DNA from: Marine Group II euryarchaeote MED-G37
GTDB taxonomy: Archaea > Thermoplasmatota > Poseidoniia > Poseidoniales > Thalassarchaeaceae
Length of the DNA stretch: 64,000 nucleotides
Reading direction: 5' to 3'
Assembly (NCBI GenBank): GCA_002457555.1
Contig: NTJQ01000006.1
Coordinates: forward strand, 4,468 to 68,467
In this document: one piece after another, positions 5,052-58,152 of the stretch
Numbering within the stretch: position 1 is the stretch's first letter
Layout of the letters: every line of letters starts with the position of its first letter
The notes under the pieces: model-generated
Told to the model about the DNA's origin: nothing
The model's input: the letters and a program-made list of their open reading frames with translations, nothing else
The model's database searches: none
Translations under genes and position numbers: made by a program

Positions 5052-6383
5052 CTATTCAGACTCCGAGTGGGAAGTCTCTGTACGCTTGATACCCCACTGA
5101 ATTAACAAACCAAGAATTGCAATTAATCCCGCAACACGGAATACTGTGTGGTATGTCCAAATTCCTGTACCTTCAACCGTGGCAGACCAGATGAAAGCGG
5201 CCAGTACTGGACCAATGATTCTCGAAAGTGCTCCAAATCCCTCTTGGGCTCCCATTACCCTTCCGAGATCAAGTCCCATTGCCCTAGCCTCGGTGGTAAT
5301 CATTGTTGATTGAGAAGGTTGGAATAACCCGTTACCAGCTGCAATGAAGGTCATAGCGAGTAGTCCAATTGCGAGTGGGGTTGGTTCTAGATACGGTATC
5401 CAACCAAGCCCGATTGAAGTCAGAATGATTCCGACTATCATCAGTTGCCGCACATCGAACCTTTTGCTAAGGGGACGAATTAAGCCGCCTTGGACAATCA
5501 CTCCCATCAGTCCAACATAGGCGAATATGTATCCATTCATTCTCTCATCATACCCTAGTCCGCCATCCTCAATCGGCATGGCGGTGAATAGAATGAATGT
5601 AGCATGCATCATGGTGAAAGCGAGTAGGAAGGTGGCATTGACTAAAACGAGCCTTTTCACATTTGGAGAGAGGTCGCGAACGCTGACTAAATTTCGAATT
5701 ACTACTTTCAGTCCCTTTTCTTCATCGGATGTTTTTCCTCTCTTTCCTGGTGGAAGGCTTTCAGGAAGCATTCGAATTGCCAATATGAACGAGATTGCGG
5801 AGAGCAATCCTGCCGTTAAACATGGCAGAAAGTAAGGGTGTGCGGCCCACCATTCTGTGTCAAACGGGCCCCCAAATGCGTTTGCAGGATCCGTTAGAAC
5901 GCCGCCTACAAATGGCCCTATCATGAATCCTAAACCAAATGAGGCCCCAATCATCCCCATCCTACCAGGCAACTGTTCTCTGGTACTGATATCACCAATG
6001 TAGGCCCGAGTTACTGCGATATTTCCATTTCCGGCACCAGCCAAGAAGCGTACTACAATGGCCATCCAAAGGGCTGATGCTAGTCCAAATGCAATTAGGA
6101 AAATGGTATTGCAGACTAATCCGAACATGAGAATTGGCCTCCGGCCAACTCGGTCTGAAAGAGCTCCTAGTAAGGGTGTGAAGAGAAATTGTCCAAGTGT
6201 GTAAGATGCTAGAACGATTCCAACCCACCAGTCTCTTGTTGCCATATCGATGAAGCCATCTGCCTCGGCTAAGTCCTGTACAAAATAAGTCAGAAAGGGG
6301 ATTACAAGAGTGAATCCAATCATGTCGATTAAAACGACAAGAAAAAGGATTAGCAACGGAGACCGTTGTCCCTCATCAGACAT
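5052..6383 (-). CDS. MFS transporter, TetA/DHA1-like
   Basis: GALSDRVGRRP motif A and about 12 TM helices; probable start ATG 6383. Confidence 0.9.
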   Translation of the reverse strand: MSDEGQRSPLLILFLVVLIDMIGFTLVIPFLTYFVQDLAEADGFIDMATRDWWVGIVLASYTLGQFLFTPLLGALSDRVGRRPILMFGLVCNTIFLIAFGLASALWMAIVVRFLAGAGNGNIAVTRAYIGDISTREQLPGRMGMIGASFGLGFMIGPFVGGVLTDPANAFGGPFDTEWWAAHPYFLPCLTAGLLSAISFILAIRMLPESLPPGKRGKTSDEEKGLKVVIRNLVSVRDLSPNVKRLVLVNATFLLAFTMMHATFILFTAMPIEDGGLGYDERMNGYIFAYVGLMGVIVQGGLIRPLSKRFDVRQLMIVGIILTSIGLGWIPYLEPTPLAIGLLAMTFIAAGNGLFQPSQSTMITTEARAMGLDLGRVMGAQEGFGALSRIIGPVLAAFIWSATVEGTGIWTYHTVFRVAGLIAILGLLIQWGIKRTETSHSESE

Positions 6384-6432
6384 AACTTGGCCCAGGGCAA
6401 GTTGCGTTTGAATGGTCCGTATTGGATTGAGT

Positions 6433-8007
6433 TTAATCGCCTCTTGCCGAGATGACTTGGTCAATCCTTAGCATACTCATGGCCGTCTCAACTGAAGATT
6501 CCAAACCTTCCTCGATAATTGCCCTTGGATGCCAAACTCCCGAAAGTTCTCCTACTTCTCCGTCGACCCTGACTCCCTGTGGTGTAGGTGACTCTTCACG
6601 CGCTACCGCGCGCATCTCTAGAACAGCATCGAGAGGGTCCTTTCCTGAATTGTCGGCTAGCGTTGCAGGTACAGTTTCCATAGCGCGTGCGAAGGCTTCC
6701 ATAGCTAATCTAGCACGTCCAGGTTCGGATTCACTGGCCTTTCTTACTGCGTTTGCGATTCTTGCGTGGGTCGCTCCGCCTCCAGCTAGTAGTTGGCCTT
6801 CTTCGAGTGCTATACTGGTGGCTCTCAAGGCATCATGCAGTCCTCGAATTACCTCCTCTGTTGCGGCTTCTCCAGCGCCGCCAATTGCAAGGGTGACTGT
6901 AGCAGGCGTTTTGCAATCGTCAATGGTGATTACGTCCTCTACTTGATCTGTCGATTGTCGACGCTCCCAGTGAACATTTCCGGCTACTCCGAGGTCGCTT
7001 GCTTCGATATCGATAATTGAGTCGATGACTGTGGCACCGGTTGCAGCAGCCGCGTTATCTAGTTCTGATTCGTCAAGGTCTGATACAGTTAGTATTCCAG
7101 CGTCTGCTAGGTCGTGCAGGATATCTCTGTCGATTTCTCCGCCCGCAAGAATCAGCTTGGCTCCACTATCAATAAGTGATTGTGCTAATTCTTGTTTGCG
7201 GGCTGACTCCGCTTCGACAAACCCATCCAATTGTTCCGCTGATGTAATTTGAATCTCGGCGTCACGAGTCATTTTTCGAATCTTGATATCGCCGCCGAGT
7301 ACCGCGGTTTTTGCATTTTTGAGATTGTTTGGGAAGTTGTCCATTTGGACTCGGCGACGGATTGCTATCCCGCGGATTAGATGGCTATCTCTCAAGCCGC
7401 CTCGACCGATTTTGTACATTGCAATATGTTCCGCTCCTGCTTGCTCGACGTTTGCTTCAACGGCGGTAAGTGCGTCTCGCACCATGGGCGCGAAGACATC
7501 GATTGCTGCTTCTGCGCCCTTGCCGGTGAGAGCAGTTTCCGCTACTCCGATTAGTCTAACATCGTCTACATCGACTGCGTCAGCATCCATTAGTTGAGAT
7601 GCTATTTCCATCGATGTTCTGTATCCGTCAACTAGGGTAAGTGGATGTAGTCCCTTGGAGAGTAGGTTGTTTGCCTCTTCCAATAGTGCTCCACAAAGCA
7701 TCATTGCGGTTGTTACTCCGTCGCCACAGGCTTCCTCCTGTGTATTACCCATGGCGACCATCATTTTTGCAGCGGGATGCTTGACCATCAATTCGGCTAC
7801 TATCTTTGCACCATCGTTTGTAACTGCAGTTGACCCGTCTGTTTTGTAGAGCATTTTGTCTAGCCCTCGAGGCCCATAAGTCGGCTTCAGTAAGTCGGAA
7901 AATACGCGAGATGCAGAGATTAACTTCTCCTGTACCTCAGTTCCACTGGTGATGTTGGTCGAGTCACTAACAACAACCACAGGAGGCTTGCCTTCACCCT
8001 CACTCAT
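6433..8007 (-). CDS. Thermosome (group II chaperonin) subunit, divergent paralog
   Basis: PTYGPRGLDKML, TNDGA, GDGVTT, GGGA motifs; no GGM tail. Probable start ATG 8007. Confidence 0.92.
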   Translation of the reverse strand: MSEGEGKPPVVVVSDSTNITSGTEVQEKLISASRVFSDLLKPTYGPRGLDKMLYKTDGSTAVTNDGAKIVAELMVKHPAAKMMVAMGNTQEEACGDGVTTAMMLCGALLEEANNLLSKGLHPLTLVDGYRTSMEIASQLMDADAVDVDDVRLIGVAETALTGKGAEAAIDVFAPMVRDALTAVEANVEQAGAEHIAMYKIGRGGLRDSHLIRGIAIRRRVQMDNFPNNLKNAKTAVLGGDIKIRKMTRDAEIQITSAEQLDGFVEAESARKQELAQSLIDSGAKLILAGGEIDRDILHDLADAGILTVSDLDESELDNAAAATGATVIDSIIDIEASDLGVAGNVHWERRQSTDQVEDVITIDDCKTPATVTLAIGGAGEAATEEVIRGLHDALRATSIALEEGQLLAGGGATHARIANAVRKASESEPGRARLAMEAFARAMETVPATLADNSGKDPLDAVLEMRAVAREESPTPQGVRVDGEVGELSGVWHPRAIIEEGLESSVETAMSMLRIDQVISARGD

Positions 8008-8084
8008 CGGCTCGCCGACCAATGAGGGCGTCATGAACCCTTGCGAGCCCTCCGAGAGGGCTCAAATATGGGGGTTCAGGGATT

Positions 8085-8438
8085 CTATGCCCACGCTAGG
8101 TTAGAGTCGACCCAGCGGGCTGTGTTCTTTTTGCCAACGAAAATCCAATACAATCCAAGGGTGATTAAAGAAAGAAATAATGTTTTCATCCAGACCATGA
8201 AAAATGAGCCCGCGTTTCCTGTAAATTTGATTCTTTTACCATCAATAAGAGCATTATTTGCCCACGCGTTGTAATACATTACAGTAGTCCATGGGACTGC
8301 AAGGAATAATGTGATTAAATTGATGAGAAAAAGGCCAACTCTAAGCAAAAACATACCTATTCCTGATTCTGCCATCATAATCTTCCAGCTTCCTGGAGTT
8401 GGTGAGGCCGGCTGCATTGCTTGTGGAGTTGTTTCCAT
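8085..8438 (-). CDS. DUF898/YjgN-like small membrane protein
   Basis: IDGKRIKFTG and LITLGLY motifs with TM helices. Confidence 0.7.
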   Translation of the reverse strand: METTPQAMQPASPTPGSWKIMMAESGIGMFLLRVGLFLINLITLFLAVPWTTVMYYNAWANNALIDGKRIKFTGNAGSFFMVWMKTLFLSLITLGLYWIFVGKKNTARWVDSNLAWA

Positions 8439-8525
8439 AATATTGTACTAGTATATCCACGAATAAGATATTCGTAGTGAGTCTTGTGAATTTCAGCGGC
8501 GTCCGTACTTGCCCTTTCGAATGAA

Positions 8526-9677
8526 CTAATCCCACCACTCTTGATCGCTCAACAGCGAAGGGTGGTTTGCTGGGAGGTCTGATTTCCAGTCGTTTGTTTC
8601 AACCACATATGCTGTGTTCCGAGTCTCCACTATGCATGTCCCCTCTTCGTCATACGTCATTCCAACTATGTTCGATGAGTAAACACTCTGAGTCCCTAAT
8701 TCTGGATGGTCGAATGCCTTTCCCACCAAGCCACCATCAATTACGGTGGCTCCAGTCATTTTGATTACTGATTTATCTTTAAGATTCTTCACGGAACCCG
8801 TGCTCTTGATTTTGATTAATTTCTCCGCCTTGTGCATTACACCTAAAGCATCATTTTTGGAATCAAATTCTGATATACCGCACATAGCCATAAAATCCTC
8901 TAAAGTTTTGTCATCATCAATTTCTTGATTATACCAATCGACAATCTGTTGGCCGTCACTCTTGCTGTCCCAGTGTTGAACATCAAAAATATCCAATGGA
9001 GTGGCTTCTGCCTTTTTTCGGTTTGAAGAAGGTTGGATATGGAAGAGAGCTTTCCAAATTACAAGGAATGCTGTAACTGCAATATAGACTCCGATGATTA
9101 TTTGGCTAATCATAATAATTGGGGGTATTACTCCGGAAAAACCCTTCATCAATACTGCTTCATCTGGATTTTTTGGATTATAATACGCACTGGTTTCTGA
9201 ACCTACTGGATAGTCGACGATCATGTCCGGTGAGAATCCGTAGTTACCTTCATCCAAATCAAGGAGAACAATATCGTCATTTGAATATGATTCCCCATCT
9301 ACAAAATAAGAATATTTGATGTATGGGTAATCGTTTCTACTGCATCCGTCTTCACCACATATTTCGTATTCTCTAATCTCTGAAATACTGACTGTTGCCG
9401 GGATTTCTTCCCAATCAGAAGTATTTACTTGATCGTAGAATGTTATTGCATCTGTGCCGACAATAAGCAAACCGACGAAGAAAATTAAGCCGGTTGTACC
9501 GAAATATGTTGATTTAACCTTGGATTTTTCTATTAATGGGATCACTGGAAGCTTCTCTGCTGGTGCTTCAATAAATTGCTTAATGTGACGTGGGCGAATT
9601 TCGAAAAAGAATACTGCGATAAATCCGAAAAATCCCAATGGGATACAAATTTCGAGGATATCTACGATTATGTCCAT
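8526..9677 (-). CDS. DUF3592-like membrane protein with an extra C-terminal domain
   Basis: TM - W..V.ATV..S..Y.Y.VDG..Y..YYNP.NP.EAVL - TM pattern, followed by a soluble tail of about 170 aa. Confidence 0.65.
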   Translation of the reverse strand: MDIIVDILEICIPLGFFGFIAVFFFEIRPRHIKQFIEAPAEKLPVIPLIEKSKVKSTYFGTTGLIFFVGLLIVGTDAITFYDQVNTSDWEEIPATVSISEIREYEICGEDGCSRNDYPYIKYSYFVDGESYSNDDIVLLDLDEGNYGFSPDMIVDYPVGSETSAYYNPKNPDEAVLMKGFSGVIPPIIMISQIIIGVYIAVTAFLVIWKALFHIQPSSNRKKAEATPLDIFDVQHWDSKSDGQQIVDWYNQEIDDDKTLEDFMAMCGISEFDSKNDALGVMHKAEKLIKIKSTGSVKNLKDKSVIKMTGATVIDGGLVGKAFDHPELGTQSVYSSNIVGMTYDEEGTCIVETRNTAYVVETNDWKSDLPANHPSLLSDQEWWD

Positions 9678-50714: not shown

Positions 50715-51236
50715 TCAATCATCAAGTGTGAATTCTGTTCCTCTCTTACGTCGTCGGCGCTTTGGCCTTGTTTCTGTTACTTCGGAGTCTGTGCCTTCTG
50801 TAGATTCCTGGGCTTCGTCTTGTAAATCGGCCACGCCTTCATTGAATTGTGTTGCGAGTTTAATGACCAGTTCCTCGGTCTCGTCGAATTCCGATTTTAG
50901 GCTATCCATAAGACTCAGTAATTCTTGGTTTCTTGCAGATAATATCTCCAGTGCTTCTTCCCGTGTCTTCTCTGCTTGGATTCCACTACCTATGTCGATC
51001 ACGGCTCCGGCTTCTGAGGGTATGTCAGCAATGATTTGTACCCCTCCTCCGAGTGGAATCATTGCATCACTCGCTCCTGATTCAGGAATGGCTTCCAGTG
51101 CCATGATTGCGCGGGCTTGTTCTTGTCTGACTTCTTCCAAACGAGCCACTTGAGATTCAAGATTCTGAAGACGTTCGCGATTCGCCTCAACCTGTTGCGC
51201 GATGCGTTGCAATTCTGCCCTGTCGGGGTTGCTCAT
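50715..51236 (-). CDS. pfdA: Prefoldin alpha subunit
   Basis: Coiled coil - IPLGGG...VIDIGSG hairpins - coiled coil; adjacent to ftsY. Confidence 0.92.
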   Translation of the reverse strand: MSNPDRAELQRIAQQVEANRERLQNLESQVARLEEVRQEQARAIMALEAIPESGASDAMIPLGGGVQIIADIPSEAGAVIDIGSGIQAEKTREEALEILSARNQELLSLMDSLKSEFDETEELVIKLATQFNEGVADLQDEAQESTEGTDSEVTETRPKRRRRKRGTEFTLDD

Positions 51237-51321: not shown

Positions 51322-52236
51322 ATGATGAGATTTGTAGCCCATTGCATGATTTGTTTGATGTTTGTGTCGTCGTTTTCTGGTTGCTTGGCAAGTGAGGATG
51401 ATGTCGATGATGGGCAATATATCGATGATGAAGAGGATTTGATCGATTACATCGAAGAGGGGATCTGTGGAGATATTGATGGGGATGGGGTTCCGGATTG
51501 TCCATTAAGTGGATATATCGAAGGCACTGAGCCCTGGTGGTGTACTTCAAGTGGAATTGGTGGCCATCACGTAGACCCTGTTTATGAGAATGCAGAGAAG
51601 GGGGGTCTTAGTGACGAAATATGTGAGTCCCTGACCTATGAGCTGAAGGCTGCGATTGAGTGGTCTCAGGAGTGGCCCACGCTGGGAGATGCTGAAGCTG
51701 CCGGATACAGCATGTCTGTTGAATATGTAGAAGGGATGGGGACTCACCATGTTATGCTCAATGATTTCTCAATGGAGGACTCTTCTTTCGATGCAGAAAA
51801 TCCTGTTTTCCCCGGTACAAGAATAGATTCTGTGTTTGAATTTGAAAGGCCTGAATTCCTAATGTATGGGGGTGAAGAAGAAGATTCTGAACTGGTCGGT
51901 TTCGCTTGGTTCGTACATTCTCCTGTGGATAACCCTCCTGAGGGCTTCTCGGGCGAAAACGATTGGTGGCACCGCCACGAAATAATGTGTTTCAGGCCCA
52001 ATGATTTTGTTTTCAGGGGAGAAGGTTTGAGTGACGATGTATGTGAAGAAAGAGGTGGTGAAAATATCAATCTAGAGGAGTACTGGATGGTGCACGCTTG
52101 GATTGTTAGGCCTTGGTTGACTTTTGATGATGTATTCACCAATCATCACCCGTGCTTGTATGAAGAGGGGCCAGAGACTGACCCAGAAGCAGAATGTTGG
52201 TCTGAGAGCACTGAACATGTTGGCCATGAAATCTAA
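51322..52236 (+). CDS. Acidic His-rich lipoprotein of unknown function
   Basis: FSGC lipobox; GMGTHH, PEFLMY, WHRH, WMVHAW motifs. Confidence 0.65.
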   Translation: MMRFVAHCMICLMFVSSFSGCLASEDDVDDGQYIDDEEDLIDYIEEGICGDIDGDGVPDCPLSGYIEGTEPWWCTSSGIGGHHVDPVYENAEKGGLSDEICESLTYELKAAIEWSQEWPTLGDAEAAGYSMSVEYVEGMGTHHVMLNDFSMEDSSFDAENPVFPGTRIDSVFEFERPEFLMYGGEEEDSELVGFAWFVHSPVDNPPEGFSGENDWWHRHEIMCFRPNDFVFRGEGLSDDVCEERGGENINLEEYWMVHAWIVRPWLTFDDVFTNHHPCLYEEGPETDPEAECWSESTEHVGHEI

Positions 52237-52310
52237 TTTCAGCATTGAGCGATTGTCCCGTTGTAGTCAAATAGGGCCCGTCTGTCGCCCGACTGCTGGA
52301 AGGATATCCG

Positions 52311-53192
52311 ATGGGTAGAGTTGTTTGGTTCACTGGCCTCTCCGGGGCGGGAAAAACCACCATTGCAATGGCTGCTGCAGAGCGGTTTGGTTGTGAGGTT
52401 CTTGACGGTGATACAATTCGGGATTTCTTTGCTAACCACGACTTCAGTAGAGAAGGTAGAGAAAGGCACCTACTAGGTATTGCCAAGATGGCAAAGATGA
52501 TTTCTAAGCACACTGATGTCCTATGTTCTTTCATCACCCCTTACGAGGATGTAAGAGAGAAGATTCTTGAGATTCTTCCAGATGATGCATTAATGGTGCA
52601 CATCTCTACGTCACTCGAGGTTTGTGAAGAACGTGATGTAAAGGGTCTGTATGCAAAGGCAAGAAGTGGAGAGATTTCCAACTTTACTGGGATTTCGGAC
52701 CCTTTCGATGAACCAAAATGTGCCCATATTACACTAAATTCAACTGGTGAAGAAGGCGGTTCGGTCGACGATATGGTCGAGCAGTTAGCTCACCTATTTG
52801 AGAAGAATAAGGCGGTTCTACTTCCTGGGCGTTGGCAGCCTCTCCACGTTGGTCATGAATGGTTAATCCAAAGAGAGTTGGACCAAGGAAAAAGAGTCGT
52901 TGTTGGAATTCGTGATACGCCCGTATCCGAGTCCGACCCTTACTCTGCTGATATGCGGAAGAGAATGATCGAGCACCGCTACGAAGGAGAAGAGGTTGAG
53001 GCTTGGATTATGCCAGATATTGAGGCCATATCCTATGGTCGAAAGGTCGGTTACGACCTACGTGAAGCAGATGATATTCCCCCGGAAGTATTCGCTGTCT
53101 CCGCCACAGGTGTTAGAGGTGGGGACAGAGCGAATGTATCTCAGAAAGTTATGGAATTCATGATTGCTGAGAGTATTTGGGACGGCGAGTGA
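52311..53192 (+). CDS. cysC: Adenylyl-sulfate kinase fused to a C-terminal HxGH nucleotidyltransferase domain
   Basis: GLSGAGKTT, LDGD, ITPY, RDVKGLY, NFTGISDP; then GRWQPLHVGH...YGRKVG...SATGVR. Confidence 0.9.
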   Translation: MGRVVWFTGLSGAGKTTIAMAAAERFGCEVLDGDTIRDFFANHDFSREGRERHLLGIAKMAKMISKHTDVLCSFITPYEDVREKILEILPDDALMVHISTSLEVCEERDVKGLYAKARSGEISNFTGISDPFDEPKCAHITLNSTGEEGGSVDDMVEQLAHLFEKNKAVLLPGRWQPLHVGHEWLIQRELDQGKRVVVGIRDTPVSESDPYSADMRKRMIEHRYEGEEVEAWIMPDIEAISYGRKVGYDLREADDIPPEVFAVSATGVRGGDRANVSQKVMEFMIAESIWDGE

Positions 53193-53230
53193 TTACAACA
53201 TTTGAATAGCAATGCTGGCTATTTCATATT

Positions 53231-53977
53231 GTGACCGAGTCCTTCGCCGTTCCCTTGTTTGTATTGCCGATGGGTATTTTTCCAATGTGCCAAGAGCCAT
53301 TGAGAGTATTTGAGCCAAGATACAAACAAATGTTGGACGACTGTGTTCTGAATAATTCTGAGTTCGGATACATAGCCGCAGACGAAGACGGCGAAGAGGT
53401 AAATGGGTGGACGCTTTCGTCCGAATATGGGGTTCTAACTTCTGCAGAGAATTTGCAGGAACAGGGCGCGAATTTGATGTTCACAGCGTATGGAGAAAAA
53501 AGATTCAGAGTAAAGAAAATCGTACCTGCAGCCCTTCCCGCTGAAGATTTTGGAGATGTATTTCCGTCTGTTGACGAACTTGTAGAACAATACATTGAGG
53601 AAGATGCGGAAGGGAAATTGTACATCAGAGCCGAAGTAGAGATTTTGGAACCTATAGATGGCGTTATTGATGACGATGATTGGATGAATATTTTGGAGAT
53701 GTGGGCATTGCAGATTGTCGAGATGTCTGGTATGTTTCGAAATGAAGATTTGTCGCTACCTGAAGTATTCTCGGTTCTGAAATCTGAGTTTTCGCCTTAT
53801 TCAGAGTATTCTTTATGGTTTGCTTGCCATTCATTATTAGATTCGAACGATGATCGCCAATCTGCCCTCGCTTCGGCCTCAGTGAGCGAAGTTCAGCAAT
53901 TGCTGGAGAGGACCGTTTCAGAAAAAAACGAACAGTTGAAAGCTATTCGTTTGGTTATGGAAAACGACTCGGAGTAA
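53231..53977 (+). CDS. LON peptidase substrate-binding (N-terminal/PUA-like) domain protein
   Basis: VPLFVL, LRVFEPRYKQML motif; no protease domain. Confidence 0.8.
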   Translation: MTESFAVPLFVLPMGIFPMCQEPLRVFEPRYKQMLDDCVLNNSEFGYIAADEDGEEVNGWTLSSEYGVLTSAENLQEQGANLMFTAYGEKRFRVKKIVPAALPAEDFGDVFPSVDELVEQYIEEDAEGKLYIRAEVEILEPIDGVIDDDDWMNILEMWALQIVEMSGMFRNEDLSLPEVFSVLKSEFSPYSEYSLWFACHSLLDSNDDRQSALASASVSEVQQLLERTVSEKNEQLKAIRLVMENDSE

Positions 53978-54025
53978 GTGTCTCGGAGTCTGTATGCTCA
54001 TAACTACGTAGTTTGGGGGGGTTGT

Positions 54026-54904
54026 ATGGCTGAAGTGCCTGAAGTAGGGGCTTTCTTGCTCGGTGCGCCCAAGTGTGGCACTACTTGGTTGGCAGAAGCA
54101 TTGACGCAGCACCCCGAAATTTGTGTCTCGGACCCAAAGGAGCCGAATATTGTCGCTAGCCATAAGGGGACCTTTGGACGAGATGTTTCTGAGCCCAATT
54201 GGGCGGCTTATGCAGATTGCTTCAATGGAGAAGGTTTGCGAATTGATTGCTCGGTTCATGCTATGGCTTGTCCTGTTGCTCCTTCACGTGTAGCAAATAA
54301 TTGGCCGGATGCGCGTCTTATCATTTGTCTCCGAGAGCCTGTTAGTCGAACGGTTTCTCATTGGAATATGGTTCTAGATACCAAAGAAGATGCAGAAAAT
54401 GGCACTGATTGGAGTGATTTTGGTGAGGCTTGGGCTGACTCGCGGCTTTCGGCTGATACTTTGTATGGTGCTGCGGTTGCAAGATGGTTACACCATTTTG
54501 ACCGCGAGTCGATTTTTTTGATTGAAGCAAATCGTATGCGCCATGATCCTTCGAAGGTTCTTGAGGACGTTTGTGATCATCTGTCCTTATCTTCACATTT
54601 GTTTGATTTAGAGTCGGTACACAATGCAAATACTGCCGCAGACCGACGGCCGATGACTGTTTTTGGCCGTCTTTTACGATTCACTTCGAGTCTGCTACCT
54701 GGTTTCATCAAAGGGCCCATCGTCAGAAGATTACAGACTAGGGGTGTGAATGTGTACAAGATGCCTGTTCTGTCAAACAAGGCCCCTGCAAAGAGAGAGA
54801 TCACTGAGTCGCAAAGGAATTTGTTAGCTAAAGAGGTGAATGCTGATTTGGCATTGCTGGAAGAGTCTATGGGTTTTGATTGCTCGAAGTGGTACATTCA
54901 ATGA
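54026..54904 (+). CDS. PAPS-dependent sulfotransferase
   Basis: 5'-PSB loop GAPKCGTTWL, KEP, and 3'-PB motif LREPVSRTVS; start ATG 54026. Confidence 0.88.
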   Translation: MAEVPEVGAFLLGAPKCGTTWLAEALTQHPEICVSDPKEPNIVASHKGTFGRDVSEPNWAAYADCFNGEGLRIDCSVHAMACPVAPSRVANNWPDARLIICLREPVSRTVSHWNMVLDTKEDAENGTDWSDFGEAWADSRLSADTLYGAAVARWLHHFDRESIFLIEANRMRHDPSKVLEDVCDHLSLSSHLFDLESVHNANTAADRRPMTVFGRLLRFTSSLLPGFIKGPIVRRLQTRGVNVYKMPVLSNKAPAKREITESQRNLLAKEVNADLALLEESMGFDCSKWYIQ

Positions 54905-54908
54905 CAAA

Positions 54909-56078
54909 TCATTGATGTTGAATCCATATCTCTGTCCATCGATTATCTGCGGCAACTAGGAAGTACGGATTGAGTACTTCTTCAACCAAGTCGTAGTCTA
55001 GTGTTTTTCCGTCTGGTCCGACTACTATGCCTCCGGCGCCTGAGACTACAGCATGTGCGGCGGCAATATCCCAACAGGAAGTCGGACCGAATCTTGGATA
55101 GATATCTGCGCCGCCTTCAGCAACAATGCAGGCCTTGAGTGAGGACCCCATTCGGACTAATTCGTGTTCTCCGACGGCTTCAGCGAACGATTCGTCCTTT
55201 TCTCCTCGATGAGAACCGCTGGCAACTAATTTCACCTTACCTTCAGTTGGCCGTACCATCATTGGGCCCGATCCTTCTGGACCGTCCCGCTGGGATGCTG
55301 CCAAGGCGCCCCCAAACCAAGTTGTATCAGATGCGGGGGCGTGAACTACTCCAAACAGTGGTTTCCATCTAGATTCGTTACGCTGCATCAAAGCAATATT
55401 GACTGTAAACATTCCATTTCTTTTGATGAATTCCTTTGTTCCGTCCAATGGATCAACCAACCAACATGTGTTACTCGACATAGGGTCGCCAACCCTTCCT
55501 TCTTCAGACACGATAGGGGTGGAGTCGATTGATTGTAATCCTGCTACAATTACGTCGTGGGCTGCGATATCTGCTTTTGTTAGTGGAGACTCATCTCCCT
55601 TCTGAGTGATTTCGAAATCTTCCGCGTTCTCGTAGACATCCATGATCGCTTCACCGGCTTGAGTTGCTATCTCAACAATTTTTTCGGGGGTAAATGATAT
55701 GGATGGCTTGGGAGGATTTTTGGTTAATTGGTTCTCTATGTGGTCCTTCAAAAGTTCAACAGAACCATCAAATGAAGTGAGTTCTTCGTCTGTTGCAAGC
55801 ATTACAAAACCGGAGTTGGTTTTGGCCACGATGCAGGGTGTCTTTCCTTCCGTGGCCTGCTTGACTTCTTCGGGCCTCTCGTTCAAATGAACTAGGTGAA
55901 ATGGTATTTCTGAGGTTTTTCTCCATTCCTTCATCTCTCCTTTTTCCCAAGCGACACTATGGGTTATGTCGCAGAGTGAGCAATGTTGGCCTCTGAATGC
56001 GACTCCCATCACGTAACGTAATTCCCCAAGTAAGCCGCCATCTGCATGGTACACCCCGTACATCGATTCGATCTTCAT
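54909..56078 (-). CDS. cysQ: CysQ 3'(2'),5'-bisphosphate nucleotidase with an N-terminal CxxC domain
   Basis: K.DESPLT.AD, SEEG, WLVDPLDGTKEF, SGSH, MGSSLK, WDIAAAH; N-terminal ~120 aa contain HCSLC. Confidence 0.9.
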   Translation of the reverse strand: MKIESMYGVYHADGGLLGELRYVMGVAFRGQHCSLCDITHSVAWEKGEMKEWRKTSEIPFHLVHLNERPEEVKQATEGKTPCIVAKTNSGFVMLATDEELTSFDGSVELLKDHIENQLTKNPPKPSISFTPEKIVEIATQAGEAIMDVYENAEDFEITQKGDESPLTKADIAAHDVIVAGLQSIDSTPIVSEEGRVGDPMSSNTCWLVDPLDGTKEFIKRNGMFTVNIALMQRNESRWKPLFGVVHAPASDTTWFGGALAASQRDGPEGSGPMMVRPTEGKVKLVASGSHRGEKDESFAEAVGEHELVRMGSSLKACIVAEGGADIYPRFGPTSCWDIAAAHAVVSGAGGIVVGPDGKTLDYDLVEEVLNPYFLVAADNRWTEIWIQHQ

Positions 56079-56092
56079 CTTCAACACCAGAT

Positions 56093-56647
56093 TCAGAATT
56101 CTTGCAGTTCGTCTGATGCTTTTTCCAGACTTTCTCGTGCTGGTTCTGATAGGTGTTGCATGAATGGATCATCATCACCTACGATGGTTTTCCATGAGTT
56201 CATTGTTCGTTGCCAAATTTCCTGTTCGGAATTCCACTCGAGCCACCGGTCGACGAAGTCGCAATGGCGTTGTACTTCTTCATCGTCCTCGGACATCTTG
56301 CGAAGAATTGTGTTAGTCTGAGCGAGAATTATTCCGAATGGGGCATTCAATTTGTATGTTGTAAATGGGTTTCGCTCCTGGACAACAGTTAGGTGTTCAC
56401 GCCATAGACCGAACGTTACGTCATACATCCAACCGATTGAGAGGACTATTACCACCACTCCTCCGAATATCCCTAAGAGGCCTAAGTAGGTAGGTGGTAT
56501 GCCCATTACAGAGTTCATTTCTTCAAATCTCCAACTAACTAAGGGCCAAATTAGGAGAGTTAATGTTGTACACCAAAAACCCATGGAAATGAGTGTTTGG
56601 CTCTGCTGTATTCGCCAGTATTGGCGCATTGCTGTCTTCTTAAGCAC
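56093..56647 (-). CDS. Hypothetical membrane protein
   Basis: 184-aa ORF with 2 TM helices, between the sulfotransferase and cysQ on the same strand. Confidence 0.65.
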   Translation of the reverse strand: MLKKTAMRQYWRIQQSQTLISMGFWCTTLTLLIWPLVSWRFEEMNSVMGIPPTYLGLLGIFGGVVVIVLSIGWMYDVTFGLWREHLTVVQERNPFTTYKLNAPFGIILAQTNTILRKMSEDDEEVQRHCDFVDRWLEWNSEQEIWQRTMNSWKTIVGDDDPFMQHLSEPARESLEKASDELQEF

Positions 56648-56764
56648 GGTTGGGGCTCCTTGCTATCCTCTTTCACAATTGCGTACACGCGTCGTGCGTG
56701 GAAATGGTTAGATCTTGGTTATCGAGACCTTGGCGCTAGGGATTTTTGTTGGCCGGGCTCTGTC

Positions 56765-57703
56765 TCAATGTGAGATTATGAGGCTAGGGTCGATATGCGA
56801 TTCGAGGTTCGCGAGGAACTCTATCTCTTCTGAGAAGGCTGCTTCTAAGTCAGTGCGTTTCTCGATGCTGAGTTCTGGTCTTTGGGTCTTTTTAGCTTTG
56901 TAACCAGGGCGGCGTAGTGGGTCGAAAATTGCCTTGCGAAGTTTGTGAGAAGGAAGGAGGATTTTGGCAAGTTTGACGAGGAACATTGGAGGTTGTCGAA
57001 GGAATCTGGCCCATCCTGCTTTGTTCATATCGCCGCCCTCGTTGTGATGGGGTAATTTTTGGTCAATAGGGAAAGGCGACTCGTCGAGCCATTCAAGGAT
57101 GCTGTTGAGGGTGGCTAAGGAATCGTTTCTAATCGACGAAATAGGGATTATTCGGATTCGGTTGGCTTCCGCTCCTCCTAAGGCTTCGACCCATTGTAAT
57201 GTCGGGTGTTTGAGACGAGGGAAGGAAAGGAAACTCCAGGTTTGTGGGTCCTCTGGATTTGCTTGATAATCACCGGCTGCAGCTGCTGCGAGCATTTCGG
57301 ACTGACTAATGTTGTAGTCGACTAATCGCTTTGAGTGCTCTTGATGCATGCTGAGCATCAATTCGATTGGGTCCCGGAGTGTGATGATTATTCTCGCATC
57401 CGGCATTTGGTCGCGGGCGGTTGTTAGTGCTCGATCTGAATAGAGGTGAAATACTGACTTATCCATCACCCAGGGTTCGCCACTAAATTTGTGGAAATCC
57501 GGTTCTGGGGTGATGATTGTGTGCCCTTTTGGGTGGATTGGAGCGGTTGGAAATTCCGCCACGCCCGCCATTAGAAAGTGGCTTTCATTTGGCCATGGGT
57601 GAAAAATAGATTCGTGGGTTCGAAGCCAATGCATGAGAGATGTTGTGCCGGTCTTCGGCCCGCCGATGAGTAGGAGGTTTGGGGTCTGATTGTATCTATG
57701 CAG
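56765..57703 (-). CDS. PAPS-dependent sulfotransferase, probable CTG start
   Basis: The frame stays open upstream of the track's ATG (57634) through GGPKTGTTSL (5'-PSB). There is no ATG/GTG/TTG before the in-frame TAA. GGAGG lies 7 nt before CTG 57703. LRDP 3'-PB motif present. Confidence 0.85.
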   Translation of the reverse strand: MHRYNQTPNLLLIGGPKTGTTSLMHWLRTHESIFHPWPNESHFLMAGVAEFPTAPIHPKGHTIITPEPDFHKFSGEPWVMDKSVFHLYSDRALTTARDQMPDARIIITLRDPIELMLSMHQEHSKRLVDYNISQSEMLAAAAAGDYQANPEDPQTWSFLSFPRLKHPTLQWVEALGGAEANRIRIIPISSIRNDSLATLNSILEWLDESPFPIDQKLPHHNEGGDMNKAGWARFLRQPPMFLVKLAKILLPSHKLRKAIFDPLRRPGYKAKKTQRPELSIEKRTDLEAAFSEEIEFLANLESHIDPSLIISH

Positions 57704-57776: not shown

Positions 57777-58043
57777 TTATTCTTCTTCATTTCGCGCAGG
57801 GGGTGTTGAGAAATCGTGTGTATCGCGGAAGTGAGCAATAACCCGGGGTTCTGTTGAGTTGGTTGGCTCAATTTCGGATAATGAGTCGATATTGATGAAG
57901 CGCCTCGAGGTTCCATGACGGCTGCCGAAGTTTGAGTAGACTAGGTGTTTTGCATCTTCTTCGTCGGCGGCTACGACGTCAAGAGAGTAGTTTTGATTGG
58001 TCCTTCCATTACGGAATGTGCCAACGGCTCGGTATGCCTTCAT
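57777..58043 (-). CDS. rpl18a: 50S ribosomal protein L18a/LX
   Basis: MKAYRAVGTF...YSNFGSRHG..RR.INI pattern; start ATG 58043. Confidence 0.9.
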   Translation of the reverse strand: MKAYRAVGTFRNGRTNQNYSLDVVAADEEDAKHLVYSNFGSRHGTSRRFINIDSLSEIEPTNSTEPRVIAHFRDTHDFSTPPARNEEE

Positions 58044-58152
58044 GGCCTTCGCGACCCAAGTTTGTGTTTTAACCCAAACGGATAGCATTCGCGAAATGAA
58101 AAGGAGGGGGGAAGTGGTGATGATTTGCTAATTATACCCTCAAAATTGAAGT

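Follow-up and report, generated by a model that had tools for sequence, protein, structure and literature searches.

What does a marine archaeon do with activated sulfate in a lineage that lacks the enzymes of reductive sulfate assimilation, and by which enzyme is the sulfate activated? Both questions are raised by six genes between positions 52311 and 57703 of a 64,000-nucleotide stretch (hereafter the window) of contig NTJQ01000006.1 from the Marine Group II (MGII) euryarchaeote MED-G37. The genes encode a fusion of the adenosine 5'-phosphosulfate (APS) kinase CysC with a nucleotidyltransferase (NT) domain, referred to here as CysC-NT; a LON N-terminal (LON-N) domain protein; two sulfotransferases, ST1 and ST2; CysQ; and a protein with two transmembrane (TM) helices, the 2-TM protein. 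A preliminary description of the window had placed these six genes at these coordinates and had read them as a self-contained sulfation module. All six were found there, in two convergent groups whose stop codons are 4 nt apart. The assembly amounts to 1.28 Mb and is 79% complete. Homologues and loci place the host in the Thalassarchaeaceae (MGIIb), genus MGIIb-O1, with close homologues in Candidatus (Ca.) Thalassarchaeum betae (a protein 87% identical) and in an ALOHA MGIIb-O1 metagenome-assembled genome (MAG; 96-97% identical).

We consider it likely that the locus is a native island of the MGIIb archaea (Thalassarchaeaceae, genus MGIIb-O1) that makes, uses and recycles 3'-phosphoadenosine 5'-phosphosulfate (PAPS), with the NT domain as the source of APS. 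In the first step of this model the NT domain would adenylylate sulfate with ATP to give APS, acting as a minimal ATP sulfurylase related to NadM and to phosphopantetheine adenylyltransferase (PPAT). In the second step, which is well supported, the fused APS kinase would phosphorylate the 3'-OH of APS to give PAPS; because the kinase consumes APS, it would pull the unfavourable first step, in keeping with the two-step logic of PAPS synthases. As judged by their motifs, two cytoplasmic sulfotransferases of the heparan-sulfate type would then move the sulfuryl group to an acceptor, most likely a saccharide that is lipid-linked or bound for a surface glycoprotein or glycolipid. In the fourth step, again well supported, CysQ would hydrolyse the inhibitory by-product 3'-phosphoadenosine 5'-phosphate (PAP) to AMP. 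The island would be a cassette held in one fixed chromosomal slot, with exchangeable sulfotransferases, and the pathway would exist only for sulfation, since the lineage is without the enzymes of reductive sulfate assimilation. CysC-NT is accordingly treated here as a candidate bifunctional PAPS synthase.

Sulfation as the probable outlet for PAPS

The fate of PAPS was addressed by a profile survey of 151 Poseidoniales genomes, most of them incomplete MAGs. Sulfite reductase (PF01077, NIR_SIR) was found in none of the 151 genomes, and the same holds for the ATP sulfurylase Sat (PF01747). As for a PAPS/APS reductase, all of the PF01507 matches across the 151 genomes are the 19 CysD genes, and since every match is a CysD, CysH is absent from the order. 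A weak PF01507 match in the present genome was considered as CysD or CysH and rejected, as it is GuaA. The pair that marks assimilatory sulfate reduction, CysH together with sulfite reductase, was thus not found. With neither a PAPS/APS reductase nor a sulfite reductase in the 151 genomes, PAPS must feed sulfation. The preliminary description had noted the absence of both reductases from the cluster and had argued for a sulfated product rather than the assimilation of sulfur. The absence extends to the whole 1.28-Mb genome and to the order, the genes are linked in relatives, and the argument stands.

In agreement with this reading, the PAPS synthase and the sulfotransferases occur in the same genomes. 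Both are present in 42 of the 151 genomes and both are absent from 91, while nine genomes have only the one and nine only the other (odds ratio 47, p 1e-19, uncorrected for phylogeny). Genomes with a sulfotransferase and no PAPS synthase were considered as evidence against the coupling, and this was rejected: six of them were tested. In five the neighbouring prefoldin gene is missing as well, and in the sixth it stands at the edge of a contig, so that these six exceptions are assembly gaps. We conclude that the genes very probably constitute a dedicated sulfation module.

APS kinase is present in 51 genomes of the order, and each of them has a partner for it. The NT fusion alone accounts for 32 genomes, CysD with CysN-CysC (about 644 aa in these genomes) for 18, both for one, and neither for none. 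CysD itself occurs in 19 of the 151 genomes and meets the fusion only in G132, where the small contig that carries the fusion was probably binned wrongly. Among the 41 MGIIb genomes (family f1) that carry APS kinase, nine have CysD and 32 the NT fusion. The genome under study and most of its genus have APS kinase without Sat or CysDN, and the same is true of a single-contig 1.6-Mb genome of the genus (G027), which carries the fusion and neither Sat nor CysD. In G121, a member of the same genus, and in G103, CysD-CysNC stands exactly in the CysC-NT position, between prefoldin and ST1/CysQ. This exchange in situ argues that both gene sets do the same job. As for the description of the module as self-contained, it holds on condition that the candidate NT domain makes APS, as is strongly suggested.

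A fixed chromosomal slot

The proteins of the window were mapped onto 18 loci from the order, 15 of which are MGIIb loci with a filled slot, from five genera. The backbone is conserved: pyrF, a response regulator, FtsY and prefoldin on one side of the slot, and LX, a coiled-coil protein (cc170) and geranylgeranylglyceryl phosphate synthase (GGGPS) on the other. The PAPS-synthesis gene set and the 2-TM protein sit in the slot in 15 of 15 MGIIb loci and CysQ in 14 (G021 has no match to it), whereas ST1 is found in 10 of the filled slots and ST2 in seven. The core of the slot thus has three components, namely CysQ, the 2-TM protein and a PAPS synthase, whereas the cassettes of sulfotransferases are exchangeable, and the arrangement of the module is not due to chance. 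The linkage in relatives on which the preliminary description depended is seen in every MGIIb locus examined. In three module-less genomes (G002, G049 and the MGIIa genome G014), the backbone is kept and the slot is empty or differently filled.

Exchange is visible at both sulfotransferase positions. A third enzyme of the Sulfotransfer_1 type occupies the ST2 position in G065 and G135, and the ST1 position of G023 is taken by a 249-aa protein that is unrelated to ST1 and gave no match in Pfam, NCBIfam or the PDB. In genus g8 the slot is without a sulfotransferase and the sulfotransferases are found elsewhere in the genome; the 2-TM protein was for this reason rejected as a hidden sulfotransferase of that genus. 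Among these sulfotransferases outside the slot is a 668-aa open reading frame (ORF) with two tandem sulfotransferase domains (G077:C20:53262-54815 and G115:C2:108771-110324).

Sulfotransferases and the likely acceptor

ST1 scores above the cut-offs of PF00685 and PF13469, and both ST1 and ST2 carry predicted PAPS-binding motifs. PAPS-dependent sulfotransferases have a 5'-phosphosulfate-binding loop (PKxGTT) and a 3'-phosphate-binding segment RxxxxRxxS. In ST1 the motifs are PKCGTTW and REPVSRTVS; its likely true start is Met17, at 54026, as its relatives begin MxEVPEVGAF. Sequence searches of the PDB matched ST1 to 3rnl (4e-15) and to the heparan sulfate 3-O-sulfotransferases 3-OST-1, 3A1 and 5 (7e-8 to 1e-5), and ST2 to 3rnl (1.4e-11). 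The entry common to both, 3rnl, is an uncharacterised bacterial sulfotransferase. A motif (K/N)E(P/S)(N/H), present in ST1 and in ST2, presumably sits where carbohydrate sulfotransferases carry their catalytic glutamate.

The start of ST2 requires comment. A start at the first in-frame ATG would delete its putative PAPS-binding loop, GGPKTGTT, which is encoded upstream of that codon and is present only in the frame that starts with CTG. This CTG, at 57703-57701, stands exactly where all relatives have their ATG start (MHRYNQTPNLLLIGGPKTGTT) and is preceded by GGAGG at 57715-57711. The position 57703 given earlier as the end of the locus is therefore right. It could be that translation begins here at a non-canonical codon, that the CTG is a variant within the population, or that the gene is on its way to becoming a pseudogene.

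Several observations bear on which molecule receives the sulfuryl group. The similarity of ST1 is greatest to carbohydrate (heparan-sulfate) sulfotransferases. A further pointer comes from one filled slot, that of G081, in which a 1244-aa protein is encoded between the 2-TM gene and ST2 (L022 12796-16530, minus strand). It is rich in Ser, Thr and Gly, carries 27 N-glycosylation sequons and ends in a C-terminal TM anchor, and it is a candidate sulfated glycoprotein that hints at the nature of the acceptor. On this evidence we lean towards a saccharide, lipid-linked or otherwise activated, as the acceptor.

The acceptor could instead be an archaeol-based lipid, giving a sulfated glycolipid, or a small metabolite such as an osmolyte or a natural-product intermediate that is sulfated. 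Neither a TM segment nor a signal peptide was found in ST1 or ST2, which places sulfation in the cytoplasm, and soluble enzymes of this kind would suit such an acceptor. Haloarchaea make sulfated glycolipids, and the haloarchaeal genes for a sulfotransferase, cysC and a YqcI/YcgG protein, described below, resemble small-molecule chemistry. The ST1 similarity and the sequon-rich anchored protein inside the slot of G081 speak for a glycan instead, though not decisively, and an acceptor of the non-glycan kind, while a serious possibility, is the less probable choice. A lipid had also been suggested in the preliminary description from the proximity of GGGPS. This clue was rejected: GGGPS belongs to the conserved backbone and not to the module, and the same backbone is kept with an empty slot, MGIIa included, so that its adjacency is uninformative on the acceptor.

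The CysC-NT fusion

The kinase half of the fusion is an APS kinase. It scores 137 bits against PF01583 (cut-off 21) and 134.1 bits against TIGR00455, slightly below the cut-off of 138.7, and it aligns along its length with the solved APS kinases 5cb6 and 2yvu. APS kinases are marked by a P-loop GxxGxGKT, DGDxxR, an (I/V)SP-type loop and a KGLYxKA lid, and in these alignments the motifs GLSGAGKTT, LDGDTIR, FITPY and RDVKGLYAKARSGE are found. Identity to solved APS kinase domains is 33-41%, with a template-modelling score (TMt) of 0.72-0.85. An AlphaFold2 (AF2) model of the fusion, with a mean confidence (pLDDT) of 92.3, can be superposed through its kinase half on known APS kinase structures; the NT domain modelled alone has a pLDDT of 87.

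The NT domain carries the motifs GRWQPLHVGH, IRDTPVSESDPY, PDIE, GRKVGY and SATGVR. Conserved across its family are HxGH, ISxTxxR and several invariant arginines, and its own motifs are RDTPxSxxDPY and GRxVGY; the latter is invariant, as are the arginine of RDT and the proline of DPY in the former. The domain was compared with both known types of ATP sulfurylase. There is no PF01747 match in the fusion, in this genome or in the 151 genomes of the order; Sat structures match the fusion only through their APS-kinase-like domains and are not among the top 50 structural matches of the NT domain. The components of the other type, CysD (TIGR02039) and CysN, are absent from this genome. The NT domain is thus a member of neither known ATP sulfurylase family. 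The catalytic domain of Sat is a member of the HxxH nucleotidyltransferase superfamily, and the NT domain, provided that it forms APS, would represent a new class in the superfamily that it shares with Sat. Our literature search found no paper on a fusion of CysC with a cytidylyltransferase-like domain or on a third type of ATP sulfurylase.

Relatives of the NT domain outside MGII

When the NT domain was searched against 1.84 billion representative sequences, 229 clusters matched at E <= 1e-10. Among the best 150 of these 229 clusters, 46 have the order CysC-NT, 22 the order NT-CysC and 66 the NT domain only (several of these being fragments). The reverse order indicates independent fusions. 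In GTDB species genomes, more than 546 NT-family loci were counted, in Woesearchaeota, Nanoarchaeota, Omnitrophota, Scalindua and other Planctomycetota, Saprospiraceae, Acidobacteriota, CPR and Halobacteria. NT is fused to CysC or lies immediately beside it in 43 of 45 non-MGII loci. In the 35 non-MGII genomes with a fusion or adjacency, Sat is present in one, CysD in 10 and neither in 25; the genomes with neither include those of the cultured Haladaptatus pallidirubidus and Haloarcula amylovorans.

The fusion is found beside sulfotransferases in haloarchaea, in an uncultured archaeon and in a gammaproteobacterium, and other lineages have it beside sulfotransferases and glycosyltransferases. 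It is annotated as plain cysC on megaplasmids of at least ten cultured haloarchaea. At the haloarchaeal loci inspected (Halostagnicola and Haladaptatus), it forms a trio of sulfotransferase, CysC-NT and YqcI/YcgG (L140, a Halostagnicola larsenii plasmid, 5530-8640; also L105 and L114), which suggests sulfation in a small-molecule pathway.

Other contexts of the domain were also seen. Representatives P0200 and P0144 have NT fused to DHHA1, a domain of NrnA-type PAP phosphatases (one of the top 150 clusters), and to DUF6717. A distant kinase-NT fusion that carries the annotation 'adenylylsulfate kinase' is found in Casjensviridae phages, the hosts being Xylella, Xanthomonas and Stenotrophomonas. 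Within the order, an MGIIa genome of genus g21 (G102; L030 6930-7667, minus strand) has a divergent CysC-NT, 28-30% identical, beside a sulfotransferase, and the fusion is therefore not confined to MGIIb.

Does the NT domain form APS?

Several observations weigh against a sulfation island in which the NT domain supplies APS. The nearest relatives of the domain, in fold (TMq 0.64-0.70, E about 1e-4) as in sequence, are the NadM-type NMN adenylyltransferases (NMNAT) and PPAT, and not Sat. CysD is also found in the 10 non-MGII fusion genomes mentioned above. In an Acidobacteriota MAG (L095 3812-6954), CysN (412 aa, with no kinase domain) and CysD lie divergently beside NT-CysC, and this is the one locus at which the NT domain has a canonical ATP sulfurylase for a neighbour. 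Such co-presence would make an extra ATP sulfurylase redundant there, which fits another role for NT. At the one phage locus inspected (Xylella phage Bacata, L139 4139-5315), kinase-NT adjoins a COG3236/NADAR-like gene, which hints at a phage subfamily with a nucleotide- or NAD-related role. To these are added the incompleteness of most of the MAGs surveyed and the fact that the co-occurrence statistics ignore phylogeny. No sulfate importer turned up, no search aimed at transporters having been made. Finally, ST2, with its CTG in place of ATG, may in this genome be inactive or expressed only at a low level.

The relatives in NadM and PPAT, the presence of CysD and the phage neighbourhood would all suit a reading in which the product is sulfated and the NT domain is no ATP sulfurylase. 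APS would then come from an unrecognised enzyme or from uptake, and NT would serve in regulation, in oligomerisation or in the adenylylation of another anion or of a nucleotide, in the manner of NMNAT or PPAT. We regard this as unlikely. On this reading 32 MGIIb genomes, a single-contig one included, would have an APS kinase and no source of APS, as would cultured haloarchaea, and neither the exact positional exchange with CysD-CysNC nor the strict coupling to CysC in either domain order would be explained.

An NMNAT role in particular is hard to reconcile with the domain itself. The scores against the NadM-type profiles are far below the cut-offs (30.7 against 127 bits for NF002243 and 22.4 against 181 for TIGR01527), and the alignment to NMNATs of the PDB spans only about 55 N-terminal residues, with HxGH and ISxTxxR kept. 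The domain measures about 125 aa, some 45 residues less than an NMNAT (about 170 aa, with the C-terminal substrate-binding part), and ends at most about 25 residues after SATGVR. The order also has separate ORFs, of about 180-240 aa, with a weak match to NT.

It is fairly probable that the NT domain is an APS-forming enzyme, a third and minimal type of ATP sulfurylase. With somewhat less confidence, we favour the broader proposal that NT is a third class of ATP sulfurylase that evolved from NadM/PPAT-like enzymes and has an obligate tie to APS kinase. On this proposal most MGIIb, many haloarchaea and members of Omnitrophota, Planctomycetota, Acidobacteriota, DPANN and CPR would have no other sulfate activator.

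Comparison with known systems

The MGIIb cysD, cysN and cysC genes have been assigned by Orellana et al. 2019 (PMC6864105) a 'potential for assimilatory sulfate reduction', and the same paper also mentions sulfotransferases as possible users of PAPS. That the present cluster is the first half of such a route, from PAPS to sulfite and sulfide for cysteine, is very improbable, given that every PF01507 match in the order is a CysD, that sulfite reductase is missing throughout and that the genes are tied physically and phyletically to sulfotransferases and CysQ. The published label is corrected accordingly: the MGIIb pathway can end only in sulfation. The lineage and the entry to the pathway are those of that paper, which lists cysD/cysN with cysC in an assimilatory frame, whereas most MGIIb genomes with APS kinase (32/41) carry the NT fusion and not CysD.

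PAPS synthases (metazoan PAPSS1/2, Aquifex Sat-CysC, and bacterial CysN-CysC with CysD) likewise bring an APS-forming activity and APS kinase together in one polypeptide or operon. The partner domain in CysC-NT differs in being neither Sat nor CysDN, but a NadM/PPAT-like HxGH domain of predicted function. With NadM NMNAT and PPAT (CoaD), the NT domain has in common a Rossmann-like HIGH fold, GRxQPxHxGH and ISxTxxR; it differs from them in its shorter length (by about 45 residues), in profile scores far below their cut-offs and in having APS kinase, and no NAD or CoA gene, as its constant partner. The chemistry of NT with CysC, adenylylation followed by 3'-phosphorylation, would parallel that of PPAT with dephospho-CoA kinase and that of Sat with APS kinase.

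The logic of make, use and recycle is common to Rhizobium nodPQ-nodH and mycobacterial cysDNC-stf0/cysQ, in which dedicated activation lies beside PAPS-dependent sulfotransferases and CysQ removes PAP. In contrast to these, the MGIIb island is archaeal, belongs to a lineage without an assimilatory branch, occupies a fixed slot with exchangeable sulfotransferase cassettes, encodes the orphan 2-TM protein and would activate sulfate by a non-canonical enzyme. A locus for PAPS-dependent sulfation is as such already known; the novelty here is that its sulfate-activating enzyme is probably of a new type.

The MGII archaea, which are still uncultured, rank with the most abundant archaea of the plankton. 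From a pathway dedicated to sulfation one would expect sulfate on their surface glycans or lipids, and a sulfated surface would affect grazing, viral attachment and marine pools of organic sulfur. Should the NT domain prove to be an ATP sulfurylase, a reaction central to sulfur metabolism would be served by a third, hitherto unrecognised class of enzyme, found in hundreds of genomes including those of cultured haloarchaea. Metabolic reconstructions that rely on sat and cysDN as markers of sulfate activation would then be systematically wrong in those lineages, and pipelines that label the fusion as plain 'cysC' would miss the activation of sulfate there.

Features of the slot and its accessory genes

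Table 1 Features of the sulfation island and its boundaries, in positions of the window
Feature	Coordinates	Strand	Profile match or remark
CysC-NT fusion, 293 aa	52311-53192	+	PF01583 E 6e-40 (aa 2-142); PF01467 CTP_transf_like E 3e-5 (aa 170-238)
APS kinase domain of CysC-NT, aa 1-160	52311-52790	+	PF01583
HxGH NT domain of CysC-NT, aa ~165-293	52803-53189	+	PF01467
LON N-terminal (substrate-binding) domain protein, 248 aa	53231-53977	+	PF02190 LON_substr_bdg, 39.5 bits (cut-off 28.7)
Sulfotransferase ST1, heparan-sulfate 3-O-sulfotransferase-like	53978-54904	+	PF00685 Sulfotransfer_1 47.2 bits; PF13469 43.2 bits
CysQ protein, 392 aa, including 130-aa N-terminal extension	54909-56087	-	TIGR01331
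CysQ domain (3'(2'),5'-bisphosphate nucleotidase; PAP to AMP)	54909-55697	-	TIGR01331 230.1 bits; PF00459 E 2e-41
130-aa N-terminal domain fused to CysQ	55698-56087	-	Uncharacterised family
Orphan membrane protein, 184 aa, two TM helices and ~100-aa soluble tail	56093-56647	-	
Sulfotransferase ST2, 312 aa	56765-57703	-	CTG at start; PF13469 35.1 bits over the frame
Prefoldin-like gene, left slot boundary (backbone, not module)	50715-51236	-	
Ribosomal protein L18Ae/LX gene, right slot boundary (backbone)	57777-58088	-	PF01775 E 6e-10
Acidic 304-aa protein, lineage-specific slot insertion	51322-52236	+	N-terminal hydrophobic segment; SGC lipobox-like motif

The CysQ domain was identified with TIGR01331 at a score just above the cut-off (230.1 against 228.8 bits), over model positions 3-248 of 250. 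The N-terminal domain fused to it gave no match in Pfam, NCBIfam or the PDB. It has 316 homologues of 94-200 aa (most of 115-145), which are mostly stand-alone proteins and in some cases high-GC and bacterial-looking. The family motif, GVYHADG...GEL.Y..G......HCxLCDITH...VHLxE, is possibly a signature for metal or redox chemistry. The CysQ-fused form is found only in this genome (G000) and in its closest relative, G051.

The 2-TM protein likewise gave no match in Pfam, NCBIfam or the PDB. None of its 307 homologues has a Pfam domain, and the few that are named are from marine Euryarchaeota or Thalassarchaeaceae. Its inclusion in the module was borne out as to position, since it is adjacent in 15 of 15 loci. 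A homologue 37% identical to it was found near pyrF in G002 (L131 14184-14720), a genome without PAPS synthase, CysQ or sulfotransferase, and the link of the 2-TM protein to sulfation is therefore only positional.

The LON-N protein, which the preliminary description had counted as part of the module, has to be set aside, and with it the 304-aa lipoprotein-like gene: both were rejected as core parts, since like the CysQ N-domain they occur, among the 18 loci compared, only in G000 and G051. PF02190 is the sole domain of the former, which has no AAA+ or protease domain beside it and is accordingly a stand-alone LON-N protein and not a Lon protease. The 304-aa protein has no family match and has a TM-like segment at aa 4-23. 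In the same two genomes the CysC-NT gene is inverted (window 51322-53192) with respect to G027 (L020 9213-10085) and to other genera of the usual orientation. This inversion, together with the insertion of the 304-aa and LON-N genes, points to a recent local rearrangement of the island.

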